From Candidatus Hydrogenedentota bacterium (GTDB lineage Bacteria; Hydrogenedentota; Hydrogenedentia; Hydrogenedentales; SLHB01): DNA of 64,000 bases. Below the pieces are notes generated by a model, which was given only the letters and a program-made list of their open reading frames with translations, searched no databases and was not told the DNA's origin. Position 1 is the stretch's first letter. Each line of letters starts with the position of its first letter. A program made the position numbers and the translations under genes. The stretch is from the NCBI GenBank assembly GCA_963668025.2, contig CAXXTH010000021.1, forward strand, positions 32,001-96,000, given 5' to 3'. Shown here one piece after another: positions 42,786-49,914 of the stretch.

Positions 42786-44765
42786 ATGTTCATGCGATCG
42801 CAGGGAATCATAGCAGCTTGCTGTATTTTGATGATCTTAACTGGCTGCGCCACGCGGCGCGCGGCGGAACAGCCGAAGGCAATGGAGGTAAAAATGCCGG
42901 AACCCGTACGTTCAGAATGGGTGTTGTTGCCCGAACCGAAACAGTTGGAATTCACCGGCGGATGGCTGGCCGTCAAGCCCAGCCAGACTGCGGTGGAAGC
43001 GGACGCCACGAAACGGTTGATCGCCGATGCCCTCGTCCTCGTGTCGGGCTCGGCCAGGACGGATGCCGTTATCTTCGGGGTGCCCATGCAAGATGCCTTT
43101 AAGGTGGACCCTGCGGCTGTACCGCAGCCGGAAGGCTATACGCTAGACATCAGCGCGAAAAGCATTGCCATCACGGCCCATGATGAAGCGGGGGCATTTC
43201 ATGCCGCCCAGACGCTTACCCAGCTTGCCCGGCAGGCCGCGGGCAAAAAGTATCTGCCTTGCCTGCGCATCAGCGATTGGCCCGATTTTCCCCATCGCGG
43301 CGTTATGCTCGATATCGCGCGCGACAAAGTGCCCGAGATGGACACCTTGTATGCCTTCGTGGACCAGATGGCCGAATGGAAGCTGAATGAGCTTCAGCTC
43401 TACACCGAGCATACCTTTGCATATAAGGGACATCATGTGGTGTGGGAAAACGCCTCGCCCATGACGCCCCAGCAGATCCATGCGTTGGATGTCTATTGCC
43501 GCGAGCATTTTATCGAGCTAGTGCCGAACCAAAACTCTTTTGGCCATATGGGGCGCTGGCTTTCCCATCCGGAATATGCGTATTTAGGTGAAATGACGGA
43601 TGGCGGCGATGACCTGTGCCCCGTGGAGCCGCGCTGCATTACATTTTTGAACGAACTATATGATCAGTTGCTGCCCTGTTTTTCGAGTGGACAGGTCAAT
43701 GTGGGTTGCGACGAGACGTGGAGCCTGGGCAAGGGCCGCAGCGCCACCGCCGTGAATGAAAAAGGCGAAGGCCGGGTGTATCTCGATTTTCTGCTCCAGA
43801 TCCACCAGTTGGTGTCCGCTCACGGAAAGCGTATGCAGTTCTGGGGAGATATCATCAACAAGCATCCGGAGCTGATCCCGGAATTGCCCAAAGACATGAT
43901 CGCCATCGAGTGGGGGTATGACGCGGATCATCCGTTCGAACGCAATTGTGCGCGTTACGCCGCGGCGGGCGTGCCATTTTATGTTGCGCCGGGCACATCG
44001 AGCTGGTGCTCGCTGTTGGGCCGGACCGAGAATTCTCTTGAGAACTTGCGCAATGCCGCAATCAATGGAAAAGCCAATGGGGCTATCGGCTACTTAATCA
44101 CGGATTGGGGCGATCTGGGACATTGGCAGTTCCTGCCGGTGTCGTATGGCCCCATGGCGTACGGCGCGGCGGCGTGCTGGGCGTATGACGCGAATCAGGA
44201 TCTAGACTTGGCGCACGCGCTGGATGTCCATGTCTTCCGGGATCAAGCGGGCGTCATGGGCAAGCTCGCTCTCGATCTCGGGAATGGGTACAAAAAAACA
44301 GGCGTCGAGATAGGTAATAATACTGTTTTGCATGCGTTGATCAGCCGGTTCGCCGAAAAGCCTATTAGCGATTCCTGGATTAAGAAAACGACTGTGGCGG
44401 GTCTCGAACAAGCGGATGAGGCGTTAGCGCAATTGATCGCGCAATTGCAGGATGCGCGGATGGACCGGCCGGACGCGGCGTTGATCGTGGATGAATTTCG
44501 TTGCGACGCGGCATTGGCGCGATTCGCATGCCATTTCGGGATTGCGCGGCTAAATGCGGGCGATGTGGGGGCGTCTGGGCTTCCCCTCGAGGCGCGCCGG
44601 CCGTTAGCGGATGAATTGGCCGTTATTTTGCCCGAATACCGGCAGTTGTGGATGGCGCGCAACCGTTCTGGCGGGCTTAAAGACAGCACCGCCGCACTTG
44701 ATGCGCTATTGGTCACGCTGCGCCAAGCGCCCCCGGCAGCCGAAGCCGCTCAACCAGCAAGCTAA
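42786..44765 (+). CDS. GH20-family beta-N-acetylhexosaminidase, lipoprotein
   Basis: Lipobox LTGC, PEGYTL, I.DWPDF..RG.MLD, GCDE catalytic pair, TDWGD.GH. Confidence 0.88.
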   Translation: MFMRSQGIIAACCILMILTGCATRRAAEQPKAMEVKMPEPVRSEWVLLPEPKQLEFTGGWLAVKPSQTAVEADATKRLIADALVLVSGSARTDAVIFGVPMQDAFKVDPAAVPQPEGYTLDISAKSIAITAHDEAGAFHAAQTLTQLARQAAGKKYLPCLRISDWPDFPHRGVMLDIARDKVPEMDTLYAFVDQMAEWKLNELQLYTEHTFAYKGHHVVWENASPMTPQQIHALDVYCREHFIELVPNQNSFGHMGRWLSHPEYAYLGEMTDGGDDLCPVEPRCITFLNELYDQLLPCFSSGQVNVGCDETWSLGKGRSATAVNEKGEGRVYLDFLLQIHQLVSAHGKRMQFWGDIINKHPELIPELPKDMIAIEWGYDADHPFERNCARYAAAGVPFYVAPGTSSWCSLLGRTENSLENLRNAAINGKANGAIGYLITDWGDLGHWQFLPVSYGPMAYGAAACWAYDANQDLDLAHALDVHVFRDQAGVMGKLALDLGNGYKKTGVEIGNNTVLHALISRFAEKPISDSWIKKTTVAGLEQADEALAQLIAQLQDARMDRPDAALIVDEFRCDAALARFACHFGIARLNAGDVGASGLPLEARRPLADELAVILPEYRQLWMARNRSGGLKDSTAALDALLVTLRQAPPAAEAAQPAS

Positions 44766-44854
44766 TCCCACACAACGAATGCGCCATTGTGGTGCGTGAA
44801 AAGGTGAGGTACAGTATAGGCGAGTCTGGTGCGGCTCGATGAAAGGCTTAGGCC

Positions 44855-45580
44855 ATGCTGCTCCAAGATCTGGCGGCGCGGATCCGCGCCCAGCGCGAAA
44901 AGCGCGGGCTGAAACAGCAGGATATCGCTAACGCGTTGAACATCAGCCCGCAAGCGGTGTCGAAGTGGGAGCGCGGTGAAAATGCGCCCGACATCGCCAT
45001 CCTTGCGCCGCTGGCGCAATTGCTGGGCGTGTCGGTGGATTGGCTGTTGTCGGCGCGGGAGGCTGGGATGGATGTCTTCGAGGCCACCGTGTTCGCATCG
45101 AGCGTGATGGGTGCCTATAAGCGTTCGCTCGAAATGGCGCCCTATGACTTTGCCGCGTGGGTGAATGGTTTTTTCTATACGCTAACGGAGGCGGTGTTGC
45201 GGGCGGGCGGCGTGCCCATCAAGTATGTGGGCGACGGTTTCTTGTGTTTCTTCGCAGGCGCGGGCCATGCGGACCGGGCCGTGCAAGCCGCGAAGCGGGC
45301 GAGGGCGCTGGTCTCGGAGGATCTCCGGGCCGGGCTTAGCGCGGGGCCGGTTTATCTGGGGTCCGTGGGCCATCCCGATTACGCCCGGCCGGACATCATG
45401 GGAGAAGTGGTGAACATCGCTTTTCTCACGATGGGCTGGGCCGAGGCGCACGGGAAGAGTGGTGTTGCCGCCACGGAGGCGGTGTTGAATGCGCTCGATG
45501 CGCCCGTGGGAACGGGTGAAGCAGAGGAAGTGAATTTTAAAGGCATCGCCAAGCCCGTGCGGGTGGTGGAGATAGTATAA
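44855..45580 (+). CDS. XRE HTH regulator fused to a degenerate class III nucleotide-cyclase domain
   Basis: ISPQAVSKWERG..PD HTH, IKYVGDG, RAGLSAGPV..G.VG, DIMGEVVNIA. Confidence 0.85.
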   Translation: MLLQDLAARIRAQREKRGLKQQDIANALNISPQAVSKWERGENAPDIAILAPLAQLLGVSVDWLLSAREAGMDVFEATVFASSVMGAYKRSLEMAPYDFAAWVNGFFYTLTEAVLRAGGVPIKYVGDGFLCFFAGAGHADRAVQAAKRARALVSEDLRAGLSAGPVYLGSVGHPDYARPDIMGEVVNIAFLTMGWAEAHGKSGVAATEAVLNALDAPVGTGEAEEVNFKGIAKPVRVVEIV

Positions 45581-45581
45581 A

Positions 45582-45746
45582 TTCACCACAGAGGCCACAG
45601 AGGGCCACAGAGAAAGCGTATGTATGATCTTGAGTGATACGTTTACATGAACATGATGTGTTATTGAGTATACGAACTATTTTGCGTATGAAGAATTTGT
45701 TTCTGGGTTTTAGTAATTCTCTGTGTATCTCTGCGGTCTCTGTGGT
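45582..45746. repeat. Tandem-unit palindrome (CACAGAG type) upstream of intact GxxExxY
   Basis: TTCACCACAGAGGCCACAGAGGGCCACAGAG ... CTCTGTGTATCTCTGCGGTCTCTGTGGT. Confidence 0.9.
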
Positions 45747-45771
45747 TCAACAATATGGAGCAACTGATTTT

Positions 45772-46146
45772 ATGCATGTGAATGAGATTTCCGGCCAGAT
45801 TGTGGATGCCGCTATTCATATGCACCAGACGCTTGGGCCTGGACTGCTTGAAAAAACTTACCAGGCATGCTTGGCGCATGAATTGCGTAAACGTAGCCTG
45901 CATGTTGAGACAGAAAAAGAAGCGCCTTTAGTTTATGATGGCCAGCACGTCGATGTGGGATTCAGGATCGATATGCTGGTTGCTGATGAAGTGATCGTAG
46001 AATTGAAATCTGTTGAGCATGTCTTGCCGATCCATGAGGCTCAAATACTCACGTACTTGAAACTCATGAAAAAACGGATTGGTTTGTTATTAAACTTCAA
46101 TGAACTCCGAATGAAAGATGGCATTCATCGGTTTATTAACGGTTAG
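45772..46146 (+). CDS. GxxExxY protein (intact)
   Basis: LGPGLLEKTY, FRIDMLV..EVIVELKS, QILTYL, GLLLNF. RBS GGAG upstream. Confidence 0.93.
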   Translation: MHVNEISGQIVDAAIHMHQTLGPGLLEKTYQACLAHELRKRSLHVETEKEAPLVYDGQHVDVGFRIDMLVADEVIVELKSVEHVLPIHEAQILTYLKLMKKRIGLLLNFNELRMKDGIHRFING

Positions 46147-46152
46147 TTTTTC

Positions 46153-46228
46153 CACCACAGAGGCCACGGAGATGCACAGAGACGATATACAATTCGATTT
46201 CTCTGTGTCCCTTGTGGTCTCTGTGGTG
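46153..46228. repeat. Tandem-unit palindrome (CACAGAG type) downstream of GxxExxY
   Basis: CACCACAGAGGCCACGGAGATGCACAGAG-19 nt-CTCTGTGTCCCTTGTGGTCTCTGTGGTG. Confidence 0.9.
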
Positions 46229-46265
46229 AACAAAATCAAACAAACCATAACAGGAGAATATACTT

Positions 46266-47708
46266 ATGGCGACAGTTACAGAAAAACAATTGGCTTACAA
46301 GGTGGCGGACATGGGCCTTGCCGCTTGGGGCCGCAAAGAGATCGACATGGCCGAGAAGGAAATGCCCGGCCTGATGGTGATCCGCGAACGCTATGCGCCG
46401 AAACAGCCTCTCAAGGGCGTGCGCGTGTCGGGTTCACTCCACATGACCATCCAGACGGCCGTGCTCATCGAGACGCTCAAGGCGTTGGGCGCGGATGTGC
46501 GCTGGGCGAGCTGCAATATCTACTCGACCCAGGACCATGCCGCCGCCGCCATCGCGGAGGCGGGCATTCCAGTTTTCGCGTGGAAAGGCGAGACGCTCGA
46601 GGATTACTGGTGGTGTACACTTCAGGCCCTGACGTGGCCCGACGGCAAAGGCCCGCAGCTTATCGTGGACGACGGCGGCGACGCGACGCTGCTCATCCAC
46701 CGGGGCTTCGACTTCGAGGAGCATTTCTCGGCGAAAGGCGTGCTGCCAGCGGTCTCCACGGAAAACAAGGAGATCACCATCATCGACACGCTGTTGCACG
46801 AGGTACACGGCGAGACGCCCGCGAAATGGCATGAGTACATGAAGGACTGGGTGGGCGTGTCGGAAGAGACCACGACGGGCGTACACCGGCTGTACCATTG
46901 GATGAAGGAAGGCAAGCTCCGCACGCGCGCCATCAACGTGAACGATTCGGTGACGAAGTCGAAGTTCGACAACATTTACGGCTGCCGCGAATCGCTGGCC
47001 GATGGCATCAAGCGTGCGACGGACGTGATGATGGCGGGCAAAGTCGTGGTCGTGGCGGGTTATGGCGATGTGGGCAAAGGCTGCGCGCAAGCCATGAAAG
47101 GCCTCGGCTCACGCGTGCTCATCACTGAAATCGACCCCATCTGCGCCCTTCAGGCATGCATGGAAGGATACGAGGTGGTCACTATGGAAGCGGCCGCGTC
47201 CGTGGGCGATATTTTCGTGACCACGACGGGCTGCTGTGATGTGATTCGCGGCGAGCATTTCGTCAAGATGAAGGACGAGGCGATTGTCTGCAACATCGGC
47301 CACTTCGACTCGGAAGTGGACATCAACTGGCTCGAAACGAATCCCGATGTCGAGGAGATGAACATCAAGCCGCAAGTGGACAAGTTCATCTTCAAGTCCA
47401 CGGGCAGGAGCATCATCATGCTGGCGCGTGGCCGCCTGGTGAACCTCGGCTGCGCCACGGGCCACCCGTCGTTTGTCATGTCCAACTCGTTCTCGAACCA
47501 GACACTCGCCGCCATCTCGCTCTGGACCGAGACAAGCAAATACGAGATCGGCAAGGTGTATACGCTGCCGAAGATTTTGGATGAGGAAGTGGCGCGGTTG
47601 CACCTCGGCAAGCTGGGCGCTAAGCTCGAATGCTTATCCGATGCCCAGTCGAAGTATTTGGGCGTGCCTGTTGATGGGCCGTATAAACCGGATCACTACC
47701 GCTACTAA
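46266..47708 (+). CDS. ahcY: Adenosylhomocysteinase
   Basis: [56 protein letters not shown]. Confidence 0.98.
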
Positions 47709-47723
47709 GGCATTAGACATGGC

Positions 47724-47758
47724 GGGAGCCTCTTCTTACTTTTAAGAAGAAGCTCCCG
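47724..47758. terminator. Hairpin between convergent ahcY and purD
   Basis: CGGGAGC..CTTCTTA-CTTT-TAAGAAG.AGCTCCCG. Confidence 0.6.
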
Positions 47759-47766
47759 TACGTTGA

Positions 47767-49047
47767 TTATAGGCCTAGATGCTTGAGCGCTTTGCTGCCG
47801 ATATCGTTGCGATAGTGGGCATCTTCGAAGTGGATGCATCGCACGGCGGCATACGCGGCGTCAATCGCCTTGGGAATTGTTTCACCACAAGCGGTGACAT
47901 TGAGGACGCGGCCGCCGTTGGTCACGACACGCCCGTTATCCCAGGCCGTGCCCGCATGGAACACCATAGCAGCACCCTCCCGCTGGGCGTCATCGAGCCC
48001 TTCGATGGGCTTGCCTTTTTGGTATGGGCCTGGATAACCGCCGGAGGCCATGACGACCGTGACACAGGCGTCTTGCGTCCATTCGATCTGGATCTGGTCC
48101 AGGGAGCCATTGGTGCAGGCGACGAAAACGGGGATGATATCGGACTTCATTCGGGGCAGGACGACTTGGGTCTCGGGATCGCCGAACCGGCAATTGAACT
48201 CGATGACTTTTGGGCCGTTCACAGTCATCATGAGCCCGGCGTACAACACGCCTGCATACGGAGCTCCTTCCGAGGCCATGGCGTCAACGGTTGGTTGCAA
48301 GATGGTGCGCTGGATTTCGGCGCACCATTCAGGCGTGACGACCGGCGCGGGCGAATAGGCCCCCATGCCACCCGTGTTCGGGCCTTCATCGCCATCGAAT
48401 ACGGGCTTATGGTCTTGGCTGGTGGCCATGGGCACCACGGTACGGCCATCGGTGAAGGCCAGTATGGACGCTTCTTCCCCTTCGAGATATTCCTCGATGA
48501 TGATGCGCGAGCCTGCTTCGCCGAATGCTCGGTCGAGCATGGCCTGGCAGATCGCGTTCACGGCGGCATTCACATCACGCGCCACGGTGACGCCTTTGCC
48601 CGCGGCCAGTCCATCGGCCTTGACGACCACGGGCGCCCCGCGATCTTTCACATAGGCGATAGCCTCTTCCGCGTCCGAGAATTCCGCATAGGCCCCGGTG
48701 GGGATGCCATATTTCATCATCAGGCGTTTGGCGAATGATTTGCTCGATTCGAGCTGGGCGGCGGCGGCGCGGGGGCCGAAAACCATGAGCCCTTCTTCGT
48801 GGAACCGGTCAACGATGCCGTGGGCCAAGGGGTCTTCCGGCCCTACGATGACTAAGCCAATCTGCTTATCCCGTGTAAACTGAACGAGCCCATCAAAGTC
48901 TTGGGTGCTGATGGCGATGCATTCTGCTTGCTGGGCAATGCCCGCATTGCCCGGGGCGCAATAGACTTTGCCCACCATAGGGCTTTGGGCGATTTTCCAC
49001 ACGAGGGCATACTCGCGCCCGCCACTTCCGATCACTAAAACGTCCAC
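47767..49047 (-). CDS. purD: Phosphoribosylamine--glycine ligase
   Basis: GSGGRE, APGNAG, KADGLAAGKGV, GPNTGGMG, EFNCRFGDPE, GGRVL. Confidence 0.98.
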   Translation of the reverse strand: MDVLVIGSGGREYALVWKIAQSPMVGKVYCAPGNAGIAQQAECIAISTQDFDGLVQFTRDKQIGLVIVGPEDPLAHGIVDRFHEEGLMVFGPRAAAAQLESSKSFAKRLMMKYGIPTGAYAEFSDAEEAIAYVKDRGAPVVVKADGLAAGKGVTVARDVNAAVNAICQAMLDRAFGEAGSRIIIEEYLEGEEASILAFTDGRTVVPMATSQDHKPVFDGDEGPNTGGMGAYSPAPVVTPEWCAEIQRTILQPTVDAMASEGAPYAGVLYAGLMMTVNGPKVIEFNCRFGDPETQVVLPRMKSDIIPVFVACTNGSLDQIQIEWTQDACVTVVMASGGYPGPYQKGKPIEGLDDAQREGAAMVFHAGTAWDNGRVVTNGGRVLNVTACGETIPKAIDAAYAAVRCIHFEDAHYRNDIGSKALKHLGL

Positions 49048-49101
49048 CGAAACCTCCTCGAATGCCGCATCTGCTTTTTGAGTCCAGGCCGGCTAAGCCT
49101 G

Positions 49102-49701
49102 TTATGCGCGCGCCAGCGCTAAATAATCCGCGATTACTTGGTCATAATGGGCCGTGCATGCGAATGCTTCCTGCGCCAGCAAAAAACGCGTGGGGTAGGT
49201 CACCGCGCCATTATGCGCGCGCATCTCGTGCATGATGGCGCTGTACCGTTCTGGATTGACGACCACCGTGACATACCGGAAATTTTTCGCGGCGGACCGA
49301 AGCATGGTCGCGCCGCCGATGTCGATTTGCTCGATGACTTCATCCATGGTAATGCCCGGCTGTTGGACAAGGGATTCGACGGGATGGAGATTCACCACGA
49401 CCAAGTCTATCCATTTATAGTCGTCCGCTTGAAGCTGCTCGCAATGGATCTTGTTGTCGCGGATGCCGAGGAGGCCGGCATGGACCTTTGGATGCAACGA
49501 TTTAACCCGGCCATCCATCATTTCTTGTACGCCAGTAAAATCGGCGATGCTCACGGCGTGGACGCCCGCCTCGTGCAACACTTTAAGCGTGCCTGCGGTG
49601 CTGATGATCTCGACGCCATATTCAGCCAGCAATTTCGCGAGTTCCACGATGCCGGTTTTATCATGACAGCTAATGATGGCGCGGCTGATGGTTCTCATCA
49701 T
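49102..49701 (-). CDS. purH: IMP cyclohydrolase (MGS-like) domain of PurH only
   Basis: RAIISCHDKTG, STAGT, GRVKSLHPKVHAG, IDIGG.TMLRSAAKN. Ends at TAHYD.VIADYL, with no AICAR transformylase domain. Confidence 0.85.
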   Translation of the reverse strand: MMRTISRAIISCHDKTGIVELAKLLAEYGVEIISTAGTLKVLHEAGVHAVSIADFTGVQEMMDGRVKSLHPKVHAGLLGIRDNKIHCEQLQADDYKWIDLVVVNLHPVESLVQQPGITMDEVIEQIDIGGATMLRSAAKNFRYVTVVVNPERYSAIMHEMRAHNGAVTYPTRFLLAQEAFACTAHYDQVIADYLALARA

Positions 49702-49914
49702 TGTGCCTCCTGCAATCCTGCGCAAACGCCTGTCCGCTCCACTAGCGGGCCAACTATCATAGCGCGTTTCGATCCAAAAATGAACTTAAAATCTTTCTCT
49801 CAAGAACCGGGTGGTTGACCTGCCAAGATGGGGCCACTACACTATCGAGCGGGCGCTGGCCTCTGGTGAGGCTGGAGTGCAGCATGTGTGTGATTCGCGG
49901 AAGGAGAGCATTCC

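Follow-up and report, generated by a model that had tools for sequence, protein, structure and literature searches.

A 64,000-nucleotide (nt) stretch of a Candidatus Hydrogenedentota genome (contig CAXXTH010000021.1, positions 32,001 to 96,000; referred to below as the window) carries, upstream of the adenosylhomocysteinase gene ahcY, a gene for a protein of 241 amino acids (aa), in which an XRE/cI-type helix-turn-helix (HTH) domain is joined to a degenerate class III cyclase domain. We consider it fairly probable that this protein is a dedicated, autoregulated one-component regulator of ahcY, probably a repressor, and that its pseudo-cyclase domain senses an adenosyl ligand, most likely S-adenosylhomocysteine (SAH). 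The fold, the lost cyclase residues, the gene order, the operator and the co-occurrence of the operator with the regulator and with ahcY, in cis and in trans, are shown by computation. Action of the regulator on ahcY is very likely, and the ligand is likely to be some adenine nucleoside derivative lacking a triphosphate. Repression is moderately preferred to activation, and SAH is a tentative choice, the best single guess ahead of adenosine and S-adenosylmethionine (SAM).

Domain structure and degenerate cyclase residues

The regulator gene (44855..45580, + strand, start codon at 44855) encodes an N-terminal XRE/cI-type HTH domain (residues 1-66, 44855..45052, +) and a C-terminal pseudo-cyclase domain of class III cyclase type (residues 73-241; 45071..45580, +, with the stop codon included). 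The former matched the Pfam family HTH_3 (PF01381; residues 10-64, expect value (E) 2.7e-17, 63 bits against a cut-off of 23). The latter scored 20.8 bits with Guanylate_cyc (PF00211, residues 77-230), whose gathering score is 21.9; in the relatives L021, L022 and L024 the same Pfam family scored 27-29 bits. An alignment of 37 family members (A1) was used as a profile and for AlphaFold2. When compared with solved structures, the profile matched the class III cyclases 2w01 (E 1.8e-16) and 3r5g (E 3.1e-16), and its N-terminal 66 residues matched the P22 C2 repressor (E 2.1e-15) and the 434 repressor. The segment Q33-N43 of the HTH was nearly invariant across the members of A1. The AlphaFold2 model had a mean predicted local distance difference test score (pLDDT) of 92.2 and a predicted template modelling score (pTM) of 0.83. 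When the model was compared with the PDB in Foldseek, each of the top 50 matches was a class III cyclase, with E values from 1.5e-12 to 4e-10; Cya2, OaPAC, CyaC and CyaB were among them at E about 1e-12. The domain thus has the beta-alpha-beta-beta-alpha-beta core of that class. The class III cyclase fold of the regulator is real and CATALYTICALLY degenerate, and the fusion of an HTH to such a domain, described in an initial annotation of the window, was borne out by the HTH_3 match, the profile and the structure comparison.

Four cyclase motifs were recognised in the protein: VFASSVMGAY (with Ser83), PIKYVGDGF (Lys123 and Asp127), RPDIMG (Asp180) and VVNIAFL (Asn187 and Leu191). The canonical positions were taken from profile hidden Markov model alignments to solved cyclases, and the roles are those described for the class. 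On this basis we take Ser83 to occupy the position of the first metal Asp and Asp127 that of the second; Lys123 and Asp180 are presumably the adenine-specifying pair and Asn187 the ribose-contacting Asn; Leu191 would stand where the transition-state Arg is expected, and position 229 is assumed to align with the phosphate-binding Lys. The initial annotation had noted the absence of the first metal Asp (FASSV) and of the catalytic Arg (NIAFL) and the presence of a downstream Asp, all of which agree with Ser83, Leu191 and Asp180, respectively. It had also called KYVGD adenine-specifying; the motif is there, but of its residues only the Lys presumably has this role, the Asp being, as we take it, the second metal Asp.

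Conservation of these positions was determined in 104 family sequences translated from the loci described below, of which 94 are different and among which kin are not independent (L026, L051 and L115 were left out of the alignment because of X or stops in the translation, or short length). Asp180 and His173 were invariant (104/104), and Lys123 was kept in 99 sequences. Position 191 was Leu in 97 and Arg in a single sequence, position 83 was Ser in 62, Gly in 20, Asp in 11, Thr in 8 and Ala in 2, and position 229 was variable. A loop GHPDY (residues 172-176) was invariant and specific to the family. Because of this census, the adenosine-reading parts of the domain appear to be under selection and the parts that would hold Mg-triphosphate do not. 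Of the two metal-binding Asp residues, the regulator lacks the first (Ser83) and retains the second (Asp127); of the transition-state Asn-x-x-x-Arg pair the Asn is kept (Asn187) and the Arg is replaced (Leu191). Catalysis by class III cyclases requires both the first metal Asp and the transition-state Arg. With these two defining residues missing, the regulator does not appear to be a functional cyclase, and ATP is unlikely as its ligand because the residues holding metal and triphosphate are not conserved.

Two distant HTH-cyclase relatives, P0132 (46% identical) and P0136 (43%), retain all six canonical cyclase residues; their motifs in A1 are FTDI/FSDI, KYIGD, D and VNLAAR/VNLASR. Judged by these residues, they may be active HTH-linked cyclases.

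Linkage to ahcY in related genomes

A word-indexed search gave 1183 near-length relatives at E<=1e-3; the best 120 of them were 61-72% identical to the regulator and, where named, came from Hydrogenedentes/Hydrogenedentota, Sumerlaeota or Omnitrophica. An exhaustive search of representatives gave 58 clusters at E<=1e-30; its 41943 matches at E<=1e-3 were apparently mostly HTH-only, to judge from the multi-repeat matches listed. The regulator is patchy in the phylum of the window, where it was found at E<=1e-30 in 34 of 135 genomes including the window genome (G000), and at the same threshold it was present in 30 of 53 other genomes of the window's family. In G000 both the regulator and ahcY (tblastn) are single-copy.

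In 19 of 26 genome loci ahcY lay immediately downstream of the regulator on the same strand (tblastn with the window ahcY). These 19 are labelled Hydrogenedentota, Sumerlaeota, Latescibacterota, Gemmatimonadota and Armatimonadota. Among the remaining seven, metE was directly downstream in L024, and the neighbours were unrelated in six. The metagenome set consisted of 80 loci, 69 with at least 300 nt downstream; of these 69, ahcY was adjacent in 44, further on in three (one of them a 43%-identical copy) and absent from 22. When the 22 loci were annotated with Pfam, purA was directly downstream in nine, unrelated genes were found in 12, and in L101 a homocysteine S-methyltransferase gene lay two genes down from the regulator. 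Gene orders that were spot-checked included regulator-ahcY-metF (L017) and metK-regulator-ahcY (L055). Since the genome and metagenome sets overlap and hold near-copies, they were collapsed at 90% identity to 81 clusters. In 49 of these ahcY was adjacent and in three further on; purA was the neighbour in six, metE in one and homocysteine methyltransferase in one, 13 had another context and eight no room downstream. The initial annotation had proposed a survey of homologues for neighbouring ahcY or metK as a check; the neighbours proved to be mostly ahcY, and also metK, metF, metE and homocysteine methyltransferase.

Two minor observations were made on these loci. Four of them (L003, L004, L010 and L014) are labelled 'uncultured Nitrospiraceae' and fall in clades otherwise labelled Hydrogenedentota, so that the labels may be unreliable. 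In L054 (5790-7607) the gene directly after ahcY encodes an FHA-GAF protein that carries a genuine class III cyclase domain (91 bits with PF00211).

A conserved operator in cis and in trans

Upstream of the regulator gene the window contains an imperfect 17-base-pair (bp) palindrome, CAACGAATGCGCCATTG, with CAAYGA half-sites (O1, 44773..44789, +). A second box (O2, CAACC..., 44751..44767, +), with a good left and a weak right half, overlaps the stop codon of the preceding GH20 gene. A putative -35 hexamer (TTGTGG, 44787-44792, +) overlaps O1 and is separated by a 17-bp spacer from a putative -10 hexamer (TACAGT, 44810-44815, +). The same layout was found in other loci. The consensus of 58 distinct sites was TcAACc-N4-CGtnAgt, followed 22 bp on by TCAAC-N5-CGTCATTG and then by a conserved TAnnnT. 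The offset between O2 and O1 was fixed at 22 bp (two helical turns) in these sites, and the final three bases of the O1 box opened a TTGnCn hexamer exactly 17 bp before TAnnnT. In the ahcY-linked loci the operator stands about 50-90 nt before the start codon of the regulator. O1 thus overlaps what is, by its sequence, a plausible -35 of the regulator promoter, and the 17-bp size of the box would fit a dimer of the cI/P22 C2 type.

A weight matrix was built from 17 sites of other loci; the window site was excluded, as were L001 and L014, which did not meet the 17-mer pattern. When both strands of G000 (6,145,620 bases) were scanned, O1 of the window ranked first with 26.3 bits, the runner-up scoring 19.9. 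There were 107 matches of at least 13 bits, and the nine of them under a short open frame lacked the two-box layout. Because no site in G000 stands out except the one before the regulator, the regulon of the window organism looks like a single operon.

Two genomes in which the regulator is not beside ahcY offered a view of the operator in trans. G001 (L030, L031) and G002 (L032, L029) each have a long-type (475-481 aa) and a short-type (425-429 aa) ahcY open frame. The two-box operator and a -10 were found about 135 and 175 nt upstream of the long-type ahcY of G001 and G002 (18.1 and 15.6 bits, respectively), and no site of at least 10 bits was present upstream of the short-type genes. The window ahcY (46266..47708, +), the presumed target, is of the long type (480 aa; TIGR00936, 631.5 bits against a cut-off of 497.6). 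In G004 ahcY stands behind metK at a contig end, and in G005 (1.3 Mb) no ahcY was found.

Five genomes of the same family served as negative controls. Four of them, 95-99% complete and devoid of the regulator at E<=1e-30, had no site before ahcY; the best sites in their loci (9.0, none, 14.7 and 11.4 bits) all lay elsewhere. In the fifth, G092, an operator of 19.1 bits and a -10 are followed by the last ~60 codons of the regulator, which immediately precede ahcY. The arrangement (L121, G092:C174:1-2111, at about 611-954) represents a natural internal or N-terminal deletion of the regulator. Among the metagenome loci, the 200 nt upstream contained an operator of at least 14 bits in 27 of 34 ahcY-linked, five of eight purA-linked and three of 16 otherwise placed loci, and most of the linked loci below this threshold still showed a -10 and two CAAC boxes with the 22-bp offset. 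An upstream motif shared by orthologues, for which the initial annotation had suggested a search, is thus conserved both before the orthologues and, in trans, before ahcY.

The strict pattern CAACNNNNNCGTCATTG was also searched in 54 genomes of the family and gave 0-7 matches per genome, apart from 32 in G089. One match stood beside each regulator that was cross-checked by coordinates; as a means of defining further targets the pattern was rejected, being too common in coding DNA. In G089 the 17-mer CAACCTACCCGTCATTG is part of a repeated element of 32 copies (e.g. C18:4683-4699), frequently located ~20-45 nt from the end of a contig. Since G089 has no regulator, this element has nothing to do with the operator.

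A riboswitch or other structured RNA upstream of ahcY was considered and rejected. Rfam gave no relevant match at E<=1 at window positions 44000-48000, and at 15 related loci no SAH or SAM riboswitch or other family reached the gathering score. Among the Pfam matches of the regulator at E<=0.01 there was no ArsR, methyltransferase or TetR domain. The initial annotation, too, had seen neither a SahR-type regulator nor a riboswitch here.

Predicted dimer and proposed mechanism

The homodimer was predicted from two copies of the protein and two of SAH; the ligand was unscored, so that the prediction says nothing on SAH binding. The interaction prediction score from aligned errors (ipSAE) was 0.69, the best of three controls giving 0.00. 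In the calibration, 20 of 30 proteins whose structures are pairs reached the ipSAE mark, as did one of 23 solved as single chains; these counts hold here only roughly, as the regulator was predicted with a custom alignment and with ligand. The runs agreed in at least 97% of contacts, with a partner pLDDT of at least 85. The predicted interface lies in the cyclase-like domain (residues 88-112, 121-126 and 165-187), on the face where true cyclases form their active sites, and includes the family-invariant residues Asn104, Thr111, Gly172, His173, Tyr176 and Asp180. The favourable score may reflect likeness to the solved class III cyclase dimers.

We propose that the HTH domain reads the 17-bp imperfect palindrome TCAAC-N5-CGTCATTG, and that the cyclase fold, devoid of cyclase chemistry, serves both for dimerisation and as the sensor. 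Two pockets, lined by Lys123, Asp180 and Asn187, would form at a head-to-tail dimer interface, as they do in true cyclases. The dimer, or more probably two dimers on O1 and O2, would occlude the -35 and keep the regulator-ahcY operon repressed. Binding of an adenosyl metabolite, most likely SAH, in the interface pocket would shift the subunits and with them the geometry or spacing of the HTH heads, and the DNA would be released. Expression of ahcY would then rise when its substrate SAH accumulates, the same logic as that of SahR and of the SAH riboswitch. SAH is the best single guess because the partner genes ahcY, metK, metF and metE mirror the SahR regulon.

Repression or activation

Several observations weigh against the proposed SAH-responsive repressor. 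O1 is centred near -42, where class II activators classically bind as well, phage cI at PRM among them. A strict consensus scan of 44600-47900 gave no sigma-70-like promoter, the window promoter matching at 7 of 12 positions. The genome G003 has no site of at least 10 bits before ahcY, and no operator was found in the loci L048, L050, L074 and L075 of a Hydrogenedentota-type subclade. In the window itself, a 685-bp insertion (see below) may have cut ahcY off from the regulated promoter. As to the ligand and the targets, the pocket residues are also part of the predicted interface, so that their conservation could be purely structural; no linkage is seen in 13 of the 81 clusters; and nine loci (six clusters) precede purA, so that a reading restricted to SAH misses part of the family.

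The promoter geometry bears on the most serious alternative, that the protein, bound at about -42 and -64 and carrying its ligand, recruits RNA polymerase as an activator of the class II type. This is possible, although we think it distinctly less likely than repression. It would account for O1 lying ~42 bp upstream of the putative transcription start and over the -35, for O2 lying two turns further up, and for a window -35 that agrees with the consensus at only 3 of 6 positions and belongs to a promoter not called by the strict scan. However, the conserved TTGnCn-17 bp-TAnnnT arrangement looks competent alone, G092 retains promoter, operator and ahcY with only a C-terminal remnant of the regulator, and 23 of 53 genomes of the family are without the regulator at E<=1e-30. 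Repression is favoured because the core promoter looks self-sufficient and because of the truncation in G092.

A purA-linked clade and the nature of the ligand

The regulator stands 6-35 nt before purA in nine loci (L086, L088, L089, L090, L094-L097 and L103). In a quick maximum-likelihood tree (IQ-TREE; 104 rows, 94 of them different; support by the Shimodaira-Hasegawa-like approximate likelihood ratio test, SH-aLRT) all purA-linked regulators fell in one clade of 12 rows (nine before purA, two without room downstream, one in another context) with an SH-aLRT support of 99, nested inside the ahcY-linked family. All 12 rows have Pro127/Ser187, against Asp127/Asn187 in 92 of 92 others, and position 83 is Gly in all 12. 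The operator of this clade is of the same type as that of the ahcY-linked loci. With purA as the neighbour of this derived clade, the family cannot be assigned strictly to the methyl cycle in its entirety. As far as the alignment goes, the change of target gene appears to coincide with changes at two pocket positions, the adenine-reading pair being untouched, which suggests that the ligand has changed but still belongs to the same chemical class.

The purA clade is also the main ground for a second alternative, in which the regulator and operator are the same, but adenosine, adenine or an adenine nucleotide is sensed and the family guards the adenylate pool. We regard this as rather unlikely. 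It draws on the roles of the two enzymes, ahcY releasing adenosine for salvage and purA making adenosine monophosphate de novo, on the monophyly of the purA-linked clade and its short gaps, and on the presence of the adenine-reading Lys123 and Asp180 in both groups. However, the purA clade differs at exactly two pocket positions, which fits a change of ligand better than a shared one. The partners metK, metF, metE and homocysteine methyltransferase, moreover, match the SahR core regulon, as given in PMC4239095, and not purine genes. Mainly because of the two-residue switch, SAH is retained as the proposed ligand of the ahcY group and the two groups are not merged under adenosine. The suggestion of the initial annotation, a new regulator sensing SAH, adenosine or ATP, can accordingly be narrowed: linkage, operator and the lost cyclase residues speak for it, but ATP is an unlikely ligand and one derived clade stands before purA.

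It is improbable that the cyclase-like domain is free of ligand and acts as dimer glue only, DNA binding being constitutive or controlled otherwise. The position of the invariant Asn104, Thr111, Gly172, His173, Tyr176 and Asp180 in the predicted interface would suit such a role, but Lys123 and Asp180 are conserved while the catalytic residues drift, and a purely structural role does not predict that the exchange of Asp127/Asn187 for Pro127/Ser187 tracks the switch from ahcY to purA. That the protein is an HTH-linked cyclase still active on ATP or GTP is very improbable: the domain has an intact fold, it retains Asp127, Lys123, Asp180 and Asn187, and the distant P0132 and P0136 keep all six canonical residues, but Ser83 and Leu191 replace two residues that catalysis is understood to need, and Arg is found at position 191 in only one of the 104 sequences. 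That a phage or toxin-antitoxin type XRE protein lies beside ahcY by chance is scarcely credible, for although the best partial NCBIfam matches of the regulator are phage repressors and antitoxins, all far under the cut-offs, the synteny with ahcY extends over several phyla, the operator occurs before ahcY in trans and the protein is single-copy in its genome.

A wider proposal, which we put forward with some hesitation, is that a dead class III cyclase domain, turned into an adenosyl-metabolite sensor on an XRE head, defines a new one-component family over several candidate phyla, with two pocket residues setting the specificity. Regulators with Asp127/Asn187 would read SAH and control ahcY (and metK, metF and metE in some lineages), those with Pro127/Ser187 would read an adenine compound of the purine pathway and control purA, and distant relatives with intact residues may be active HTH-cyclase ancestors.

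Comparison with known regulators

Control of the methyl cycle is known from MetJ, MetR, SahR, McbR and riboswitches, almost all in well-studied phyla. SahR consists of an ArsR-type HTH and a SAM-methyltransferase-like domain, and is an SAH-responsive repressor of Alpha-, Delta- and some Gammaproteobacteria. PMC4239095 gives its regulon as sahR, ahcY, metH, metF, metK and sometimes metE. The regulator described here resembles SahR in being encoded beside ahcY, in its apparent autoregulation through a palindromic operator and in its partners (ahcY, metK, metF, metE and homocysteine methyltransferase), which match that regulon. It differs in its XRE/cI-type DNA-binding domain and class III cyclase-fold sensor, with no ArsR or methyltransferase domain, in its operator (17 bp with CAAYGA half-sites, as against the 20-bp palindrome of SahR) and in the phyla in which it occurs; it is an analogue of SahR, not a homologue. 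Two features of SAH-responsive ahcY regulators, linkage to ahcY and autoregulation through a conserved operator, were found at the level of sequence evidence.

With class III cyclases (Cya2 2w01, CyaB 3r5g, CyaC 1wc0 and OaPAC 4yus) the regulator shares the fold of the catalytic domain (template modelling scores of 0.6-0.8 on the target), the face used in the predicted dimer, the Lys/Asp adenine pair and the Asn. Unlike them, the window protein lacks the first metal Asp and the transition-state Arg (family-wide, 11 of 104 sequences have Asp at position 83) and has the HTH fusion and the invariant GHPDY loop; no cyclic nucleotide product would be expected. In the part of the literature available on XRE one-component regulators (XRE-cupin proteins, and P22 C2/434 for the HTH), the N-terminal HTH_3, the dimer on a palindrome near its own promoter and the local metabolic targets find parallels; the sensor differs from that of XRE-cupin regulators in being a pseudo-cyclase. 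The SAH riboswitch (RF01057), SAM/SAH riboswitches and McbR perform the same task, turning on ahcY or methyl-cycle genes as SAH rises, but the former are RNA and not protein, and McbR is a SAH-responsive regulator of the TetR type, a domain not present here.

A full-text search of the literature, within the scope of one library, found neither an XRE-cyclase regulator described in any paper nor a paper on how these phyla control ahcY, and the words 'XRE' and 'cyclase' have 0 occurrences each in PMC4239095. New here are the operator with its trans and negative controls, and the purA clade with its two-residue signature. By analogy, the protein can be described as a metabolite-responsive one-component regulator with a sensor domain not used in this way before, which would work like SahR but is not of the SahR family. 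To our knowledge, no dead class III cyclase fold has previously been recognised as the ligand sensor of a transcription factor. If our interpretation is correct, it provides a protein regulator of ahcY for Hydrogenedentota-type bacteria, Sumerlaeota, Latescibacterota, Gemmatimonadota, Zixibacteria and related uncultured lineages, and it parallels the degenerate GGDEF and EAL domains that were turned into receptors. The split between ahcY and purA, with its two-residue signature, offers a direct experimental way into ligand recognition by the pocket, and a compact protein with a defined 17-bp operator could serve as a biosensor of SAH or of adenosyl metabolites.

Neighbouring genes and the inserted GxxExxY unit

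Upstream of the regulator a GH20 hexosaminidase gene ends at 44765. Convergent to ahcY (47767-49725, - strand) lie purD and a 207-aa open reading frame (ORF) that, by eye, resembles only the N-terminal part of PurH; these neighbours may or may not be related to the purA link of other loci.

Between the regulator and ahcY the window has a 685-bp segment (45581..46265, +) with a GxxExxY (PD-(D/E)XK) unit. Its GxxExxY/PDDEXK_3 ORF is listed at 45634..46146 (+), the likely start being the ATG at 45772, and matched TIGR04256 (E 3.5e-42). The unit is bracketed by inverted repeats of the CACAGAG type, roughly 20-36 nt in length (45584-45614/45717-45746 and 46147-46182/46200-46234), and the G+C content falls to 0.46-0.49 within it. 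In the window genome there were 15 tblastn matches to the GxxExxY protein and 24 CACAGAG-N2-6-CACAGAG pairs. The segment looks like a multi-copy inserted unit. In the 19 ahcY-linked genome loci the gap between regulator and ahcY is only about 20-310 nt, against 685 bp in the window, in agreement with the view of the initial annotation that the regulator directly precedes ahcY once the unit is removed.

A terminator scan gave four weak matches, not above the level of shuffled sequence (mean 3.0), and none between regulator, insert and ahcY. No RNA data set was among the 14 sequencing runs listed for this DNA. The contigs of four sequencing runs showed no junction that skips the GxxExxY unit. 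A 5277-nt contig of one of these runs (X1) spans the regulator, the insert and the start of ahcY with zero differences, but X1 may be the source sample.

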